In this document: positions 1,434 to 40,741 of the stretch, one piece after another
Layout: each line of letters opens with the position of its first letter
Position numbering within the stretch: position 1 is the stretch's first letter
From: a virus
Lineage: Duplodnaviria > Heunggongvirae > Uroviricota > Caudoviricetes
DNA: 40,741 nucleotides
IMG/VR virus record: IMGVR_UViG_2711768062_000003
Coordinates: 1 to 40,741 of that record
Direction: 5' to 3' (one strand)
The notes under the pieces: model-generated
Seen by the model: only the letters and a program-made list of their open reading frames with translations
Told to the model about the DNA's origin: nothing
Databases searched by the model: none
Program-made: the position numbers and the translations under genes

Positions 1434-1672
1434 CCAACCTGCCCGGGCAGGGAGCGGAGACGGCGCATGCCGGTCATCGCTGTGGCCACGTAGCTCGCCT
1501 TTCGGTTCACCACCTCCACCCAGACTTTCACGCCTTCAACCTTCACCGTATAAGTCTCTTTCATCTTGCTTCGCCCATAGTCGCCATATGTTTGCAAGTG
1601 AGCTGCCAGCGCGATGTCGCATGCTTGGCGAGCTAAAGGTGATTGCTTACTTCCTCGATTGATCAGTCGCAT
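1430..1672 (-). CDS. Hypothetical early-operon protein
   Basis: 80-aa ORF; strong SD (AAGGAG) 6 nt upstream of ATG; 4-nt overlap with downstream gene (translational coupling). Confidence 0.5.
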   Translation of the reverse strand: MRLINRGSKQSPLARQACDIALAAHLQTYGDYGRSKMKETYTVKVEGVKVWVEVVNRKASYVATAMTGMRRLRSLPGQVG

Positions 1673-1710
1673 ATAATCTCCTTGAGGGAGGGTTACCCCT
1701 CCCGGTTTCG

Positions 1711-2829
1711 TCAGGCCACGTATTCCGGTTTCATATCCGCCAGGGTGATGCTGAATTGATCGTGCAGTTCATCGCCTAAGTGACGCTTTGAAGATGCAAG
1801 CATGCGCTCGGCTTCAGCGAACCGTTCGGCTGCATGCGGCTCGTCGGGCTGGGGCAGGGATTTAATAGCCTCCTCAACCTTGTTGCGTGCATCCACTAGG
1901 TAATAACGCTTTACGGCTTTGTTTTTCAGCTCGGTGAATAGTGCGGATCCCAGCGTAGCTTTCGCCGTTTCAATGTCGGCACGCAGCGATTTGGCGCTAT
2001 CCACGTCCTGAGCAGATTCGATGCGTTCGCGGAAATCATCGGCAAGAGAGTCGACATTTACCGACGATTCCTGTGCGCTTTGCGTGGTTGTGACGGTGTC
2101 ACATGAGATATCAGCCAGGCTAACGCGTTGCGGCGTTGGGTTGATCTCTTTTTCTGTGCGCTGTTCAATCTCATCAGGGGTGTACACACCAAGAACAACT
2201 GCAGGGCAATACAGGCGCGCCCAGTATTTGAGTGCCAGATAAGCGATCTGCTGTTTCGGGTTTGATACCCAAAGTGGAGAATTACGTGTGATTACGCTGG
2301 AGAGGAAAACAGGCTCTCCCCAGGTGATATCACTTTCACCGCGAATAACGGCACCTACCCGTACCGACAGTCCTTGTTCATCAGCACTTTCCCAACCGCG
2401 TACCATTTCTTTCTTGTCGTACGTCCCGCCACCTTTCGCAGGCTTTTTAACGGTTATCTCGCGGCTGCTGGCACATTTCGACCAGTCGCCCTCGTACTCA
2501 TAGTGAAAGCGGCCAACGATGGCGTTTGAGCTGGAGATCACCGCATTAACCAGTTGCGCTTCGTATCCCAGGACACCGTTAACCAGGTGCGTCTTTTGCG
2601 CCACGGCGTAAGGGTTCATACCCCACTGCATCGCCTGCATGATGATGGCCATGCAGTCTGCCGGATTGCCGCGGAGGTGCTCAGGCACCGTTACGGCTGC
2701 CTGTGCCATCAACCCGGCGACAGACTGAAGCTGGGTTAAAGCCTGCACGTTGAAAATGGCATTGCTGGCTGAGATCGTGTTTGGAGTCTGCTGTTCAGCG
2801 GTTACGATATTCGTGTTTTCCATCATCAT
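1711..2829 (-). CDS. RecT/Bet-family single-strand annealing recombinase
   Basis: 372-aa ORF; N-terminal core (IIMQAMQWGMNPYAVAQKTHLVNGVLGYEAQLVNAV) matches the RecT/Red-beta pattern from memory; immediately downstream of the exonuclease gene as in recET modules. Confidence 0.65.
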   Translation of the reverse strand: MMMENTNIVTAEQQTPNTISASNAIFNVQALTQLQSVAGLMAQAAVTVPEHLRGNPADCMAIIMQAMQWGMNPYAVAQKTHLVNGVLGYEAQLVNAVISSSNAIVGRFHYEYEGDWSKCASSREITVKKPAKGGGTYDKKEMVRGWESADEQGLSVRVGAVIRGESDITWGEPVFLSSVITRNSPLWVSNPKQQIAYLALKYWARLYCPAVVLGVYTPDEIEQRTEKEINPTPQRVSLADISCDTVTTTQSAQESSVNVDSLADDFRERIESAQDVDSAKSLRADIETAKATLGSALFTELKNKAVKRYYLVDARNKVEEAIKSLPQPDEPHAAERFAEAERMLASSKRHLGDELHDQFSITLADMKPEYVA

Positions 2830-2834
2830 TCCCC

Positions 2835-5800
2835 TTATGCCTGAGTACGCAGCGCTTCAAGGCGGCGCAGGTCGAAGTCGTTCAGTTCGTCGGTGTAGTC
2901 AGCAGTGATTGGCGCTGGCCATTCACCTGTGTCGAATCCGGTTGCGATATTGCGCATCGCTTTGCGGTACTCGAGCATACCCAGCTCCAGTAGTTCAGCG
3001 GATGCCTCGATGATGGCGATCCAGTGGTAGTTCTCGTCTTTGTTGACGAAAATCCAGAAGAACTGATCCAGCGCTGCGGTTTCGCAGTACATAGCCGCGC
3101 TCAGGTGATAATCACGTTCAATAATTTCCCGGTGTAGCCTGGCGCGCAGGCTTTCCTGCTTAACATTCCACATGCTGATGGTTTTCAGGTCTGCACCTAT
3201 ACGCACGCCATCCAGGTCGATCTCAAGGTCAGGGCGCACACGAACTTCCAAGCCCGTCTCCTCGTCAAAACCAAAGTAGCTCACCTCAACGGCTCGGCTA
3301 GGGTGGGTCAGCAGCATGCCGGCGGTCGGGTGTGCCAGAAGCGCTTTTTGAATATTCAGCGCGGTGCTCAGCTGCTGGCGGGTGACCAGCACTTTTCCTT
3401 CCGGGTTATCGCGCCAGGCATCCAGCAGTTCGTCGGCAAATACGGCATCTGGTTTGACTGCCTTCACGGCCTGGATCATGTCTGCTTTGGTACCGGACAC
3501 TTTCAGTGGTGCCGGTTTCTGTGCTTCCTGAGCCACAAGGTCAGGGTTGATGATTGCCAACTGCTCCAGCAGCGCGTCACGGCTGCCGCTGGTTTTAACC
3601 GGCGGCGGCAGGGTGGCGTTGTACTCTTTAATGCATGCCTTCATTGCCGTCGCCGTCTGCTTCTGGTCACCATCAATACGCTGGAAGTCAGCTGGCAGCG
3701 CCATATAGTTCTGTGCCGTTTCTTCCAGGTTAGCGCCAAGCGGAACCTGCGGCGGCAGGGTGGCGTTGTACTCTTCCAGTAACACCTTGATGTCGTCGGC
3801 AGACAGCAGCGCCGGCAGGCTGGCATTGTGCTCATCGATAAAGGCGCGCAGGGTCGCGGCCGTTGTGAATGCGCCTTCAGGGATCACCGGTTCAACGCTG
3901 AATTCTGCGTCCAGTAGTTCAGGCTGCAACGCCAGCGCATGCACCAAGTTGCCCATGTCCAGCACCGCTGAGCGCTCTTTGACGATGGTTTTCTCTACGT
4001 GGCGCGCATTGAAGTACATCAGCGAAACGCGCGCATCTTTCACCTGGGTTGAGCTGATGCCGTTGGCGGCGTGGTAAACCTCGTTTGGCAGCCCTTCATA
4101 GCGGCCTGGCTCGAAATAAGCGGGATAAACAACAGCTGGTTCGTCAGATTGCGCTTCTGGCTCGGTTTGTGCTGCAACTGGTTCGGTTTGGCTTACAGAA
4201 TCGCTATTTTTGGCGACAGAATCCGTATTCTGGTTTACATCGTCCTTCTGGCTGGTATCTGACTCTTCACCAGACTCCAGACTGCTTTCGCCTGGCTGTA
4301 CTTCATCACCAACATTTTTTTCATCACTGACAGTTTCTTGAACCTGCACATTGCTGGTGGTTTCCGTAGCCTGTTTCGTGCCATGAGTTGCTGAGTTCTG
4401 CAGTAAAGCCGTAACATCGAATATTCCGTTGCCGACATTTTTAACCAGTTCTTGTTCGGCTTTATGTGGTTGTGCTGTCGCTTCCTCTGCGCGGCGGCGT
4501 GCTTCTTCTTCACGTACGCGTTGCAGGTTCTCTTCGTGAGTGCAGAAGGATTTGCGCGGAGACTCCTTACCTTCAGGTTGGGGAATTTCCTGTGCTGCGG
4601 GTTCAGCCTCATGCAACGGCAATAACTCGACCGCGGAATTGAACGCGGCTGTCATGGTCTGGTTAACAAATTCCAGGTGAGCGACAGGAGTTAAATGAAT
4701 ATTTTCCGGTGCGATACGTACCAGGTTAAAAATAGCCGTGCGGTTAACACCCAGAACGCCTGGCTGATTGCGCAGGATGTTGCTCCATGATTTCCATGGT
4801 TCTTCTTTTTTGGTCACGATTTCTTTAGCGCGACGAAGAATGCTGCCCGGGATCTCGAAGTGGTTGAAGTCCATAGGCAGAAGGGCACATGCAATCTCTA
4901 AATCGAGAGTGTCAAGGGTATGGTATGTATCAGGTCCACGGTCAGTGACGTAACCGCCGTTGGCATTGGTTCCGGAATCAGTACGCTGCACACTACTGAT
5001 GCGATTACCGGCGGCCCATTCGCGAACGAGGATACCGCGGTCGATGTGATCTGTAGCGAACCACAATTTCAAAAACTGGATTAAGGTTGCGAGTTCAGGG
5101 ATTTTTCCATCGACAGGGAAGACTTTCTTAACGGCATTCACGACTTTATGAATATCGTGCTCAATGGCTTTTTTGAATGCTTCCACATTCTCAGCTGCCA
5201 GCAGCAGGTTCTGGACGTACGCGTCATCGGTGTCCATCTCAAGGCGGACAATCTCATTTTTCTGCCCTGCGTCGATGTGATAGAGATATTCACCATCACC
5301 GATGAACTGAGCCAGTACGCGCTGGCGGAATGGCAGGGTGGCAACAACGATCAGGTTCGGTTGCTGTGTCTGCTGGGATTGCTCTTCGGTATCGACTTCA
5401 CCATCAACGACGCCACCTTCTGCCCGGCCGTTCTCGTCGGTCTGGATACCGTCCTCAACAGTGAGATCTTGACCAGTTGTAACGTCAGCAGCGTTGCTGG
5501 TTTCAGTTTTGAGCAACTGCAACTTACCACTGCGCCAGTCTTCTACCAGTTGATTGCGGTCACCGGCATCGGTGTTCACCCAGTCAGACATGAATGCAGC
5601 GATCAATCTTGGTTCGTGCTCTTCGTCTGGTGTGAAAATGTCCTTAACCGCCCGAATCATTTTCCACTCAGCATTCAGGCTGAGTTTGGCGGTCGCGGGC
5701 ACATCGTTCCTTGCCACAAGCAGGCTATGGAGATATGTATTGCCTTCATCCAGTGACATTTCGCTGGCAGCCAACTGCTGCTCTTTAGTGACGTGGGTTT

Positions 5801-37315: not shown

Positions 37316-37992
37316 GTAGGTACACGGATCTAATCACTAACTACCACGCCACTAAGCCGAAATACCTCGATCACATCGATCTTAGTACCCGTCCCCTGAT
37401 TGATATCACGTCAGCCACAAGGGGCCTGGTGAGTGCGTTTGACATTGATACGGCTGTTGGCGTGCAACTCGATATTCTCGGACTCTGGATTGGACGTAGC
37501 CGTATAGTCAGCCAGCCCATTAGTGGCGTTTATTTCAGTTGGGACACGGAGGGGCTCGGATATGACCAGGGCGTATGGCAGGGGCCATATGATCCTAACT
37601 CCGGCTATACGACGCTTAGCGATGATACCTATCGCACTATTCTGAAAGCAAAAATCGCTATTAACAACTGGGACGGGCGTAACGACTCGCTTCCGGACAT
37701 TCTTGACACTGCCACAGTGGGTTCGGGCCTGAAGATGCAGATCGTCGACAATCAGGACATGACGATATCGGTCTGGGTATTTCCCGAGACTGATATTTCT
37801 GATGTGTCTCTCGAACTGATCGCCGCTATCAAACAGGGCTATCTCACCGTTAAAGCCGCTGGCGTCTGGGCCGGTGATGTTGAAATGCCTTCGGTTGAAA
37901 CACCGTCCGAAGGAACAAAATTCTTTGGATTTGACATGGATAACGAATACATCGCCGGTTTTGATGACGGCGCATGGGGGAGATTACTTTAA
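37312..37992 (+). CDS. Tail protein (gpI / Mu gp48 / e14 YmfQ-like position)
   Basis: 226-aa ORF; ATGA overlap with J-like gene; precedes tail fibre gene. Confidence 0.55.
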   Translation: MSRYTDLITNYHATKPKYLDHIDLSTRPLIDITSATRGLVSAFDIDTAVGVQLDILGLWIGRSRIVSQPISGVYFSWDTEGLGYDQGVWQGPYDPNSGYTTLSDDTYRTILKAKIAINNWDGRNDSLPDILDTATVGSGLKMQIVDNQDMTISVWVFPETDISDVSLELIAAIKQGYLTVKAAGVWAGDVEMPSVETPSEGTKFFGFDMDNEYIAGFDDGAWGRLL

Positions 37993-38636
37993 TGGCTGGA
38001 ACTAATGATTTTAAAGCGTTTGCGACAGATGCTAATGCAAATGTTACCTCGCAGGAGGAATGGGAGACGCTAACCGCACTGAAGAAAGGATTCTCCTCGG
38101 GTAAAGCATCCAGCGCACAGGTCAGTAAAGCGCTGCGCCAACCGTCGACGATGGCGGCTGTACTGGGGCAGTTTATCGCGAACGCCGAACTGGACGCGCT
38201 CGATGATGGTGACGTTGATGGACTGGTGGCAAAGCTGGCGACAGCGATTACCACAAACCTTGGTTTGGGAGAAGCGGCAAAACGGGATGTGGGTAACGGG
38301 CAAAACCAAATTCCTGATATGTCAGCGTGGGAGTGTGGGGGAGATACAACGACGGGATGGAGGCGAAGCCCGGATGGTTATATTGAACAATGGGGGCTAA
38401 CTGAGGCCACAACAAATGAAGTTTTGATTAATTTTCCTATCCCATTTCCGACAGCCGTCATTTCTATTAATGAACATGACCAGGCTCCTGTGGCAGGGAA
38501 AATGGCAGTATGGCAATTCTATAAATTGACTAACTCAAATGTCATAGCAGAGAACCTGGGATCTCTTGATAAAGGAAATCCATCCTTCAATGTTCCAACT
38601 ATCGCTGGTTGCCGCTGGTTTGCTACAGGAAGATAA
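37992..38636 (+). CDS. Tail fibre protein (short; constant N-terminus plus variable C-terminal part)
   Basis: 214 aa from ATG overlapping upstream stop; followed by tfa; counterpart variable segment on the opposite strand. Confidence 0.65.
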   Translation: MAGTNDFKAFATDANANVTSQEEWETLTALKKGFSSGKASSAQVSKALRQPSTMAAVLGQFIANAELDALDDGDVDGLVAKLATAITTNLGLGEAAKRDVGNGQNQIPDMSAWECGGDTTTGWRRSPDGYIEQWGLTEATTNEVLINFPIPFPTAVISINEHDQAPVAGKMAVWQFYKLTNSNVIAENLGSLDKGNPSFNVPTIAGCRWFATGR

Positions 38637-38637
38637 A

Positions 38638-39078
38638 ATGAGTAAATATCTTTACGATGCAAAAACTAATATGTTTTACCCATTTACTCTGGAAAGTCAG
38701 TATAAGGAGTCTGGGTTATGGCCTCATAATGGAGTTGAAGTTGATGAGGATATATTTATTAAGTACCTGTCCCCACCTCCAGGGAAAGTGAGAGTTGCGG
38801 GTGATGATGGCTATCCTGCATGGGATGACGTACCGCCGCTAACTCATGAAGAACAACAGTCAGAAGCGGAACGAAAAAAACAGGCACTCATAAATCGAGT
38901 TAATGAATATATTAACAGTAAGCAGTGGCCAGGAAAGGCTGCTATTGGTCGTCTGAAAGGTGAGGAACTGGCGCAATATAATTTGTGGCTGGATTATCTG
39001 GACGCACTGGAACTGGTTGATACCTCCAGTGCTCCAAATATTGAATGGCCTACGCCTCCGGCAGTTCAGGCCAGATGA
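38638..39078 (+). CDS. Tail fibre assembly protein (Tfa)
   Basis: 146 aa; C-terminal Tfa signature DTSSAPNIEWPTPP. Confidence 0.8.
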   Translation: MSKYLYDAKTNMFYPFTLESQYKESGLWPHNGVEVDEDIFIKYLSPPPGKVRVAGDDGYPAWDDVPPLTHEEQQSEAERKKQALINRVNEYINSKQWPGKAAIGRLKGEELAQYNLWLDYLDALELVDTSSAPNIEWPTPPAVQAR

Positions 39079-39652
39079 CATCCGGCGCGGTACTGGTATC
39101 TGTTACCGTCACCGCGTCAATGTAATCTAGCACACTGTTAAGTCGGGTGGTCTCTGCTTGCGTCAGCTTCCGCCCGGCCTGCAATTTCAGCTGAATCAGA
39201 CTGATGGAGGCCATAGCAGCATCAATCAGCGACTGGCGCTGTGCTTCTGCCACGTCTACTGCAGCGCTATGCTGTGCCTCAGTATCCGTCACCCATTTCT
39301 CACCATCCCATTTATCGTATGGCGTTAACGGGGCGATAGTGGTTGTATTTTCGGGATAGTCGCCTAGTGCTGTGATTTCTTTGGCATCTCCCGTTTCGGT
39401 GTTATAGACGATTTCACCGCGATGGTCTGACACATATTCCCATGATTTTAAATCCACAGAACGGCAAATTGTATAACCAGCCTTATATGTACCAGGACCG
39501 TCTAAACAGGAATATGCTGGAATACCGACACCCACTGCAAGATATTCAGTTGATTCAGAAATATATTCCCGAGTTTCACCATCATAGTTATAGACGGTAA
39601 TATTCCCCGCCTTCGTGGCAATAAGCTCGCTATTTAATACGGCATTATCCAT
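39050..39652 (-). CDS. Alternative tail fibre assembly protein (Tfa-prime, inverted orientation)
   Basis: 200 aa; Tfa signatures (DHRGEIVYNTETG ... DTSTAPDVIWPELP); convergent with and overlapping tfa. Confidence 0.8.
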   Translation of the reverse strand: MDNAVLNSELIATKAGNITVYNYDGETREYISESTEYLAVGVGIPAYSCLDGPGTYKAGYTICRSVDLKSWEYVSDHRGEIVYNTETGDAKEITALGDYPENTTTIAPLTPYDKWDGEKWVTDTEAQHSAAVDVAEAQRQSLIDAAMASISLIQLKLQAGRKLTQAETTRLNSVLDYIDAVTVTDTSTAPDVIWPELPEA

Positions 39653-40140
39653 TATGCAGCCCTCACGATAAAGTTAAATGCGATATTTCGTGGACGATTC
39701 TCTGATGCTGTTGGGATCTGTCTGGAGGCATCAAATTCAATCTGGCTATAAATCCCGTCGCTTGAGGTGATATTATTGATTTGCTGTTTGAGATACTTTC
39801 CCGCAAGATCAAAAACACCGGTACCGACAGAAAAAAGGCCATTAATATTTATCCCAAAATTACCTGTGATATTTCGAATTGCATCTCCCTGCGCGCTCAT
39901 TAACGCACGTCCGCTATCTACCCCGCGCCCATCATCCCAGCCTCGTAAAAACTCACCACGTAAATCTGGCAATTTATTTGTCGGGTAAGCCTTTGCCAGT
40001 TTCGGGTATTCCTCAGCAGAAAAAGGCGCACCGTTGCACTTAAGCCATCCCGTTGGTGGCGTTTCTGAAGGCCACGGAACAGGCACGCCAACAGGTAATG
40101 CAGAGCCTTCTCCCAAACCAACCTTTTTTATAACCATCAA
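39652..40140 (-). CDS. Alternative tail fibre variable C-terminal segment (lacks its own N-terminus; expressed only after inversion)
   Basis: 162-aa ORF, frame open upstream to the recombination site next to the invertase gene; stop overlaps Tfa-prime start. Confidence 0.6.
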   Translation of the reverse strand: MMVIKKVGLGEGSALPVGVPVPWPSETPPTGWLKCNGAPFSAEEYPKLAKAYPTNKLPDLRGEFLRGWDDGRGVDSGRALMSAQGDAIRNITGNFGININGLFSVGTGVFDLAGKYLKQQINNITSSDGIYSQIEFDASRQIPTASENRPRNIAFNFIVRAA

Positions 40141-40161
40141 AAATCTGGTGATGCTTCGCCG

Positions 40162-40187
40162 TTTCTCCTGTTTTCATAACAGGAGAA
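40162..40187. other. Candidate invertase recombination site (hix/gix-like 26-bp imperfect palindrome)
   Basis: TTTCTCCTGTTTTCATAACAGGAGAA: 12-bp half-sites TTCTCCTGTT(T/A)T in inverted orientation, 6 nt upstream of invertase ATG. Confidence 0.45.
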
Positions 40188-40192
40188 ATCCC

Positions 40193-40741
40193 ATGATTTA
40201 CGGTTATGCCCGAGTATCAACAAACCACCAGGACACTGAATTGCAACTAACGGCGCTCAAGTCAGCGGGTTGTGAGAAAATTTTTGAAGAGCATGCCAGC
40301 GGGAGGAAATCGAATCGGCCGGTTCTAAAACGGCTGATCACCACTATGCAGCCGGGGGATGAACTGGTGGTCTGGAAGCTGGACAGGATAGGCCGCAACG
40401 TTCTGCATGCGCTGTTGATGTTCCAGCAGTTACAGGAAAAGGATATCAACTTCCGCAGTATTACCGATGGCGTGGATCTCAAAACAGCCAGCGGCCGCTA
40501 TAACTTTCGTAACATCCTTTCCGCAGCACAATATGAATCTGATCTTAATAGCGAACGTACCTTAGCAGGGCTGGCCGTAGCCAGGGCAAAAGGGCGAGTT
40601 GGTGGTCGCAGGCCTAAGTTCACGGATGAGCAATGGCGGGAAATGGGGGAGCGGATGGCAACCGGTGAATCACGACAAAGCGTATCAAAAACGTATGGAG
40701 TAGGGCTCTCAACTCTGTATAAAAAGTTTCCAGCTAGCTGA
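40193..40741 (+). CDS. Serine DNA invertase (Gin/Pin/Hin/Cin family)
   Basis: 182 aa; strong collinear match to Gin from memory (MIYGYARVSTNHQD ... VVWKLDRIGRN ... INFRSITDGVDL ... RTLAGLAVARAKGRVGGRRPKF ... LSTLYKKFPA). Confidence 0.9.
   Translation: MIYGYARVSTNHQDTELQLTALKSAGCEKIFEEHASGRKSNRPVLKRLITTMQPGDELVVWKLDRIGRNVLHALLMFQQLQEKDINFRSITDGVDLKTASGRYNFRNILSAAQYESDLNSERTLAGLAVARAKGRVGGRRPKFTDEQWREMGERMATGESRQSVSKTYGVGLSTLYKKFPAS

Follow-up and report, generated by a model that had tools for sequence, protein, structure and literature searches.

A probable e14 P-type inversion switch for the tail-fibre tip at the right end of a 40.7-kb prophage

The right end of the prophage studied here carries two sets of genes for a tail-fibre tip and its assembly chaperone on opposite strands, next to a gene for a serine recombinase, which raises the question of whether the fibre tip is exchanged by DNA inversion and, if so, between which points. 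The window, i.e., the whole stretch of DNA analysed (40,741 nucleotides), spans 40.7 kb from integrase to invertase, contains full head, tail and baseplate modules and appears complete; the host element is a lambdoid-early, contractile-tail prophage with the cassette at its right end. The gene content was correctly read in the original prediction: a fibre gene followed by tfa on the plus strand, a second tfa and an N-terminally incomplete fibre tip on the minus strand and an adjacent Gin/Pin-type serine invertase, all of which are borne out by domain matches (Table 1). We conclude, with a probability of about 0.9, that the region is a Din-family (Hin/Gin/Cin/Pin-type) inversion switch of the e14 P-segment type that swaps the fibre tip.

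Table 1. Features of the cassette region (window coordinates)
Feature	Coordinates	Strand	Remarks
Tail fibre gene	37992-38636	+	214 aa; Pfam Gp53-like_C (PF21882) at aa 127-214
Sc, constant N-terminus of the fibre	37992-38261	+	codons 1-90 (translation); phrog_11303 matches aa 3-89 only
Left 26-bp site	38248-38273		TTACCACAAACC TT GGTTTGGGAGAA; outer half, core (38260-38261), inner half
Sv, variable C-terminus of the fibre, in expressed position	38262-38636	+	gp53-like C-terminal domain, PF21882; phrog_1396/4209 at aa 91/92-213
tfa, tail-fibre assembly chaperone paired with Sv	38638-39078	+	Pfam Caudo_TAP 2.3e-34; phrog_188
tfa', alternative assembly chaperone, tfaE-like	39050-39652	-	200 aa; Pfam Caudo_TAP 2e-31
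Sv', alternative fibre C-terminus, tail-collar type	39652-40119 (to about 40121)	-	Pfam Collar 4e-15; phrog_523
Right 26-bp site	40108-40133		TTCTCCCAAACC AA CCTTTTTTATAA; inner half, core (40120-40121), outer half
Palindrome in the invertase leader	40162-40188	+	TTTCTCCTGTT-ttcat-AACAGGAGAAA; 11-bp stem; outside the invertible segment
Serine DNA invertase	40193-40741	+	182 aa; Pfam Resolvase 3.5e-38 and HTH_7 1.6e-09; phrog_125 'DNA invertase'

The left recombination site had been described as not cleanly resolved, yet it can be read off as the longest inverted repeat of the region. Its reverse complement, TTCTCCCAAACC AA GGTTTGTGGTAA, shares with the oppositely oriented right site a perfect 14-nt repeat, TTCTCCCAAACCAA, which includes the AA/TT core. 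This repeat is present in exactly two copies in the 40.7-kb window, inverted relative to each other, against 0.02 expected from shuffled sequences. As is usual for the Din family, the sites are two inverted, imperfectly palindromic 26-bp elements with identical 2-bp cores; the outer half of the right one, CCTTTTTTATAA, is a poor half-site. Comparison with the published pixL and pixR sequences (Table 3 of PMC3241671) revealed that TTCTCCCAAACCAA is identical to the inner half plus core of both e14 sites, and the same sequence was also found in e14 of MG1655. The right repeat, taken as positions 40106-40121 (CCTTCTCCCAAACCAA), matches, at 16 of 16 positions, the e14 inverted repeat to which inversion has been mapped by experiment (PMC12529663), and the left repeat matches its e14 counterpart at 15 of 16. 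The crossover points are placed exactly at 38260-61 and 40120-21. A scan of the whole window for further sites, such as would allow multiple inversions of the shufflon or Min type, returned only the two exact copies. Near-matches with three mismatches, e.g., at 39849-39860 inside Sv', were considered as extra sites and rejected, being at chance level, and the two partner motifs formerly suggested in the fibre gene (38052-38060 and 38089-38102) turned out to be chance partial matches.

The crossover dinucleotide lies within codon 90 (CTT) of the translated constant part, and inversion performed in silico preserves the reading frame, so that Sc joins either tip: the product is a 214-aa fibre with a gp53-like end in the sequenced orientation and a 245-aa fibre with a collar-type end in the inverted one. 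The constant part therefore has 90 aa, a usual length in this phage group (StfP of e14 has 209 aa in total), and not about 40 aa and unusually short as first estimated. Sv' is promoterless, and the segment provides it with no start codon; as an open reading frame it covers 39652-40140, and its frame, as had been noticed, continues open into the palindrome beside the invertase start, with a stop at 40173-40175. The 3' end of tfa', which is silent in the sequenced orientation, overlaps tfa by 29 bp. The region thus offers what a Din-type switch contains, i.e., two fibre C-termini with their own assembly genes on opposite strands, and a constant N-terminus and promoter outside the segment. For annotation, this means that the 3' end of the fibre gene exists in two alternative versions and that the minus-strand 'phage tail protein' reading frame is a silent alternative tip rather than a pseudogene.

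Both orientations occur among natural relatives. Megablast alignments of E. coli sequences with the cassette begin and end at window positions 38252-38257 and 40121-40127, which correspond to the two sites, and BLAST strand switches are confined to 38260-38274 and 40107-40121, so the breakpoints fall inside the 14-nt repeats and at the cores. At the same E. coli locus, yciI-tonB, prophages of this type whose invertase is 98.9% identical to that of the window carry the segment unflipped (L001, L002) or flipped (L008, L009). In another relative (L031), the interior is inverted between flanks that match the window at 99.9% and 99.7% identity. The constant part is collinear in every relative, at 89-99.9% identity, irrespective of segment orientation; in flipped ones, Sv is inverted and adjoins the invertase, and Sv' is joined to the same Sc in five cases (L008, L009, L015, L023 and L031). 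Among 28 IMG/VR contigs with an identical right flank, which have at least five different fibre constant regions, the two states are about equally frequent. P2-like prophages contain a 97.5-99.7% identical segment, again in both orientations (L005 versus L006 and L007). The 1.86-kb segment is therefore a portable module bounded by its own sites and kept at this level of identity across unrelated tail types. Exact-pattern scans of species-representative genome contigs with the left and right junctions gave no match, and the element is therefore taken to be absent from those representatives.

The expected course of events can be outlined as follows. The adjacent invertase would bind the two inverted 26-bp sites (38248-38273 and 40108-40133), and a related resident invertase could act on the same sites in trans. 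Cleavage at the central TT/AA dinucleotides would then lead to inversion of the 1.86-kb segment. The late operon would read the 90 constant fibre codons followed by whichever variable end faces it, to yield Sc-Sv with Tfa in the sequenced orientation and Sc-Sv' with Tfa' in the inverted one. The two tips would probably confer different host ranges; since the fibre and Tfa products depend on orientation, we propose that each lysogen population releases virions with two receptor specificities.

A cassette of this kind, Sv-Tfa / Tfa'-Sv', had been likened to the Mu G, P1 C and e14 P segments. Gene order and strands are indeed the same, gene for gene, as in the P segment of E. coli K-12 (stfP-tfaP / tfaE-stfE / pinE), where the fibre is equally short (209 versus 214 aa), the convergent tfa genes also overlap by 29 bp, tfaE shows 86% nucleotide identity to tfa' and the invertase gene likewise lies just outside the right site. 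The inner half-sites and core (TTCTCCCAAACC AA) are identical, while the outer half-sites differ (GGTTTTCGAGAG / CGTTTATGAAAA in e14 versus GGTTTGTGGTAA / CCTTTTTTATAA here). The e14 element further differs in its PinE protein, only 54% identical to the window enzyme, in its baseplate neighbour (a DUF2313 protein instead of a DUF2612 protein), in segment length (1.80 versus 1.86 kb) and in being a remnant, whereas the window prophage looks complete. Inversion of the e14 segment was demonstrated experimentally (PMC4272514; PMC12529663), and the part between the two repeats was found inverted by whole-genome sequencing (PMC12529663). The G segment of Mu with Gin and the C segment of P1 with Cin share with the window the placement of Sc outside and of Sv-U and U'-Sv' inside the segment, the 26-bp sites with a 2-bp core and the adjacent invertase gene; however, their segments are larger (3-4.2 kb), their fibres are much longer (the constant part of Mu alone has about 170 codons), the gix core dinucleotide is GA instead of AA, and Gin and Cin conserve Fis-contact residues that the window invertase does not. 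The P2-like E. coli prophages (e.g., of strains ET565, USMARC-51688 and MB50) match window positions 38252-40126 and have the same inner half-sites, but their cassettes are flanked by the fibre genes and the sheath gene instead of standing at the prophage end, follow a long P2 H-type constant region (about 350 aa) and are accompanied by an invertase of PinE type, which has 85% identity to PinE and 54% to the window enzyme. The kind of system is thus already known and our knowledge of DNA inversion systems is unchanged; its sole mildly unusual feature is the divergence of the invertase together with its missing Fis-contact residues.

With its N-terminal catalytic domain and C-terminal helix-turn-helix, the window invertase is a small serine recombinase of the build typical of the Din family; its best match of solved structure is Gin (3UJ3, 1.3e-55). 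The reading frame is intact, the catalytic Ser9 aligns with Ser9 of Gin, and the VVWKLDR and GRxGGRRPK motifs are conserved. It is 54% identical to PinE, 51% to Gin, 52% to Cin and 36% to PinQ/PinR. Since Pin, Gin, Cin and the P2-like invertases are 74-85% identical to one another and the window enzyme is only 51-54% identical to these, it lacks the high identity to the classical Pin/Gin/Cin/Hin cluster that a PinE orthologue would have and appears by sequence to form a separate lineage acting on pix-type sites. Fis-dependent invertases were reported to conserve the residues corresponding to Hin K47, R/K48, K/R51, H107, Q151, R154 and L155 (PMC3798978). In our alignment, Hin K51, H107, Q151, R154 and L155 are replaced by T, R, E, E and R; of the residues that contact Fis or the enhancer, K46 and R47 are retained. 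In cin, the annotated enhancer spans nt 19-90. At the corresponding places in the window invertase gene, by our own placement, the presumed Fis core I (nt 22-36) retains its G..C ends, and the presumed core II (nt 71-85) has C..A, in contrast to G..C in pin, gin and cin; no G-N13-C pair with the Hin-type 48-bp spacing was found in the 5' region of the gene.

The palindrome in the invertase leader was first taken for a hix/gix-like site. It does exist, with an 11-bp stem, but it is not the right recombination site, which lies 30-55 bp further in. Its 3' arm includes the Shine-Dalgarno sequence of the invertase (AGGAGA, 40180-40185), so that pairing buries the ribosome-binding site, and the RNA of positions 40134-40215 folds with -25.5 kcal/mol (z = -3.8). 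The palindrome adjoins the invertase in both orientation states. Of 33 relatives, 30 have it unchanged, and the covariation check of all 33 showed a single loop change and a single stem change; pinE, gin and the P2-like invertase gene have no such element in front of them. No σ70 promoter was found between the right site and the invertase ATG, overall promoter counts being equal to those in shuffled sequences. The palindrome could act as a throttle on translation or as an autoregulatory pseudo-site to which the invertase binds. That the enzyme represents a distinct lineage which recombines pix-type sites without canonical Fis/enhancer contacts, with the palindrome possibly as a lineage-specific control element, is an idea we consider rather unlikely as a whole. 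In its outer arms, TTCTCC...GGAGAA, the palindrome is similar to the corresponding parts of pix sites.

An alternative is that the architecture is right but frozen here, the invertase being inactive or poorly expressed, or that flipping is carried out wholly in trans by other Pin-type invertases. The window is a single assembled sequence with one orientation present, the invertase diverges at positions important for Fis activation of Hin, and its ribosome-binding site is buried in the 11-bp stem. PinQ of another prophage flips the e14 segment (PMC12529663), an instance of pix-type sites being recombined by an enzyme acting in trans, so that finding both orientations among relatives is no proof that the adjacent enzyme was responsible. 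In the phi80-like phages HK225 and mEp237, the invertase gene with the right outer half-site and leader is 96-99.5% identical to window positions 40110-40741 and, as in the window, stands beside the att/int genome end. HK225-like contigs, however, have a degenerate inner half-site (CCCTCCCAAACC), and 2.4 kb (L017) or about 10.9 kb (L025) of upstream sequence revealed no left partner, so the invertase copies in these two contigs appear to be orphans with a remnant site only. Against such a relic state in the window speak the intact invertase with its catalytic serine and conserved motifs, the two intact recombination sites and the finding, in numerous independent genomes with several fibre constant regions, of a 98-99% identical invertase next to segments in either state. 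We therefore regard a frozen or purely trans-driven cassette as improbable; the adjacent invertase is the probable catalyst of the proposed Din-family switch and is probably active in this very sequence.

It is much less probable still that inversion mainly serves host defence, by producing an orphan, chimeric fibre-tip protein that keeps other phages from adsorbing, as reported for e14, whose StfE2 was reported to block T2 adsorption (PMC12529663). In the right flank, an ATG on the minus strand (40137-40135) that is two bases away from the right site does open a 161-aa reading frame (MVIKKV-GLGE...) equivalent to e14 stfE, but no Shine-Dalgarno sequence is evident upstream of it, and the prophage, unlike e14, is apparently complete with its virion modules, so its fibre is presumably used by virions.

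Finally, crossover at the leader palindrome with a degenerate partner near 38050-38100 and a constant part of about 40 aa is next to impossible: the palindrome is real, its arms recall those of pix sites and the Sv' frame stays open into it, but it spans 25 rather than 26 bp, lacks the AAACC/GGTTT inner motif of Din sites and has no above-chance partner in the fibre gene, PHROG domain boundaries fall at aa 89/92 and not at 40, and the breakpoints rule it out, the palindrome remaining fixed beside the invertase, and window positions 38062-38259 collinear with the upstream flank, in every flipped relative.

Five genes are encoded by region 37992-40741 (see table), in the layout that had been predicted from the sequence: tail fibre and tfa on the plus strand, a second assembly gene (tfa') and an alternative fibre tip (Sv') on the minus strand, and a serine recombinase on the plus strand. 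The gene order is that of the E. coli element e14 (stfP, tfaP, tfaE, stfE, pinE). The convergent tfa and tfa' overlap at their 3' ends by 29 bp (39050-39078), exactly as tfaP and tfaE do in e14 (4518-4546 of the e14 locus). In e14, flipping of the segment was demonstrated with sequencing and PCR in one study (PMC4272514) and with qPCR and genetics in another (PMC12529663). The cassette is an instance of a long-known inversion system; the original prediction recognized it as such, while the recombination sites it proposed were wrong.

Genes and recombination sites of the invertible cassette
Feature	Position	Strand	Remarks
Tail fibre	37992-38636	+	214 aa; start overlaps stop of upstream DUF2612 baseplate gene
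Left site	38248-38273		26 bp; TTACCACAAACC TT GGTTTGGGAGAA
tfa	38638-39078	+	Caudo_TAP assembly gene
tfa'	39050-39652	-	second Caudo_TAP gene; 200 aa
Sv'	stop at 39652	-	fibre C-terminal segment with tail-collar domain
Right site	40108-40133		26 bp; TTCTCCCAAACC AA CCTTTTTTATAA
Serine recombinase	40193-40741	+	Resolvase + HTH_7; 182 aa

An inverted-repeat search of region 37900-40300 retrieved 38248-38274 paired with 40107-40133 as the longest repeat. The inner halves and the central dinucleotide make up a perfect 14-nt inverted repeat, TTCTCCCAAACCAA, which is present in exactly two copies in the 40.7-kb window (0.02 expected from shuffles). The same 14 nucleotides form the inner half and core of e14 pixL and pixR, tabulated beside the hix, gix, cix and mix sites (PMC3241671), and our scan, applied to e14 of MG1655, picked up both pix sites. 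Inversion driven by PinQ/PinE has been mapped at two e14 inverted repeats (PMC12529663); one of them is identical to window positions 40106-40121 (16/16), and the left copy in the window matches at 15 of 16 positions.

If recombination takes place at the core dinucleotides (38260-61 and 40120-21), the reading frame is preserved. The constant part of the fibre (Sc) comprises codons 1-90 and ends in ...ITTNL; both variable ends open with GLGE, encoded by the inner half-site. Joined to the tip in the expressed position (Sv), Sc yields a 214-aa product with a gp53-like tip, and joined to Sv' a 245-aa product with a collar tip. Independently of site mapping, PHROG profiles split the fibre at aa 89/92, so the constant part is 90 aa long rather than the ca. 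40 aa first estimated. Fibres of this group are normally short, as e14 StfP with its 209 aa in total shows. The mapping fixes both sites, the codon at the junction and the border between constant and variable parts.

Both orientations occur in nature. When 5,426 complete E. coli genomes were searched with the region by megablast, many matches started at 38252-38257 and stopped at 40121-40127; the cassette is thus a module with the two sites as its borders. In P2-like prophages the segment is 97.5-99.7% identical and, between the same flanking genes, lies one way round in ET565 and the other way in USMARC-51688 and MB50. A query carrying the left junction flipped in silico retrieved prophages of the window's type at the yciI-tonB locus, with invertases 98.4-98.9% identical. 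In PSJ-22 and Res13, Sc is joined to a collar-type tip, and it is the gp53-like one that sits inverted beside the invertase; G3/10 and TD225-C4 have the orientation of the window. Scanned for the right outer half and its flank, IMG/VR yielded 28 contigs with at least five different fibre constant regions, the two orientation states being about equally frequent. In BLAST comparisons the strand switches exactly within 38260-38274 and 40107-40121; in one IMG/VR locus (L031) the flanks are 99.9% and 99.7% identical to the window and the interior is inverted. Since PinQ, an enzyme about 38-39% identical to PinE, flips e14 in trans (PMC12529663), the orientations in relatives are no proof of catalysis by the adjacent enzyme.

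The TD225-C4 locus (1449-5169) is degraded: baseplate genes are deleted, tfa' and Sv' are truncated, and the right site has one mismatch (ATCTCCCAAACC); its invertase is intact. Two HK225-like IMG/VR contigs (L017 and L025) carry an orphan invertase with leader and right outer half-site as in the window, and a degenerate inner half-site (CCCTCCCAAACC). The upstream DNA examined (2.4 kb for L017, ~10.9 kb for L025) contained no left partner; the invertible segment has apparently been lost. Matches to HK225 and mEp237 belong with this orphan arrangement.

The window extends from an integrase at the left end to the invertase stop codon at the right and looks like a complete prophage; its E. coli relatives occupy a site between yciI and tonB. 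Over the first 15.8 kb, identity to the early regions of mEp237, HK225 and phi80 is 94-99%, and the structural half shows at most 78% nucleotide identity to known phages (Yersinia phage YP3, Salmonella phage SEN34). Among phage records, it is Citrobacter phage Omnitron that matches the whole cassette most closely.

Two bases beyond the right site, an ATG on the minus strand (40137-40135) opens a 161-aa ORF (MVIKKV-GLGE...), which continues into the tip that happens to lie on the invertase side. The ATG is not preceded by any clear ribosome-binding site. The e14 equivalent of this ORF is stfE; the chimeric product StfE2 reportedly blocks T2 adsorption (PMC12529663).

The palindrome originally taken for the right site, TTTCTCCTGTT-ttcat-AACAGGAGAAA (40162-40188; perfect 11-bp stem, 5-nt loop), is not part of the segment but of the stretch that separates the right site from the invertase ATG. 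It spans 25 bp, lacks the AAACC/GGTTT inner motif and stays in place in all flipped relatives, which disqualifies it. Nor does the left crossover lie at ca. 38050-38100, where imperfect partner motifs had been noted. The invertase Shine-Dalgarno sequence (AGGAGA, 40180-40185) is within the 3' arm, and the 82-nt leader folds with -25.5 kcal/mol (z = -3.8). Our best guess is that the palindrome limits invertase translation; it may act as a translational throttle or else as a pseudo-site for the invertase. Its outer arms (TTCTCC/GGAGAA) are similar to those of pix. Covariation is uninformative, since the palindrome is unchanged in 30 of 33 related loci. Upstream of pinE, gin and the P2-like invertase it is missing.

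This invertase lineage, with its leader hairpin, may be regulated differently from classical Fis-dependent enzymes. The invertase retains Ser9 as catalytic residue, together with the conserved motifs VVWKLDR and GRxGGRRPK. Its identity is only 54% with PinE, 51% with Gin, 52% with Cin and 36% with PinQ/PinR, against 74-85% within the group of PinE, Gin, Cin and the P2-like enzyme. Judged by sequence, it is a separate lineage. Among residues uniquely conserved in Fis/enhancer-dependent invertases (PMC3798978), Hin K47 and R48 are kept (K46 and R47). The enzyme lacks the residues for Fis contact that Hin, Gin and Cin have in common, Hin K51 being replaced by T, Q151 and R154 by E, and L155 by R. 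Hin H107, the classic Fis-independence position, is R, and helix 1 of the DNA-binding domain carries "ER", as in PinQ/PinR. In cin, the annotated enhancer covers nt 19-90. With Fis cores placed by homology, presumed core I of the window gene keeps G..C ends, whereas presumed core II has C..A in place of the G..C of pin, gin and cin; G/C at ±7 of the core is important (PMC4784862).

In four of the 33 related loci, representing three sequence variants, the same catalytic domain is followed by a different C-terminal DNA-binding domain, and invertase genes thus appear mosaic at the domain boundary. One of the four, an IMG/VR locus, carries a canonical Pin/Gin-type "QAGRL" Fis patch.
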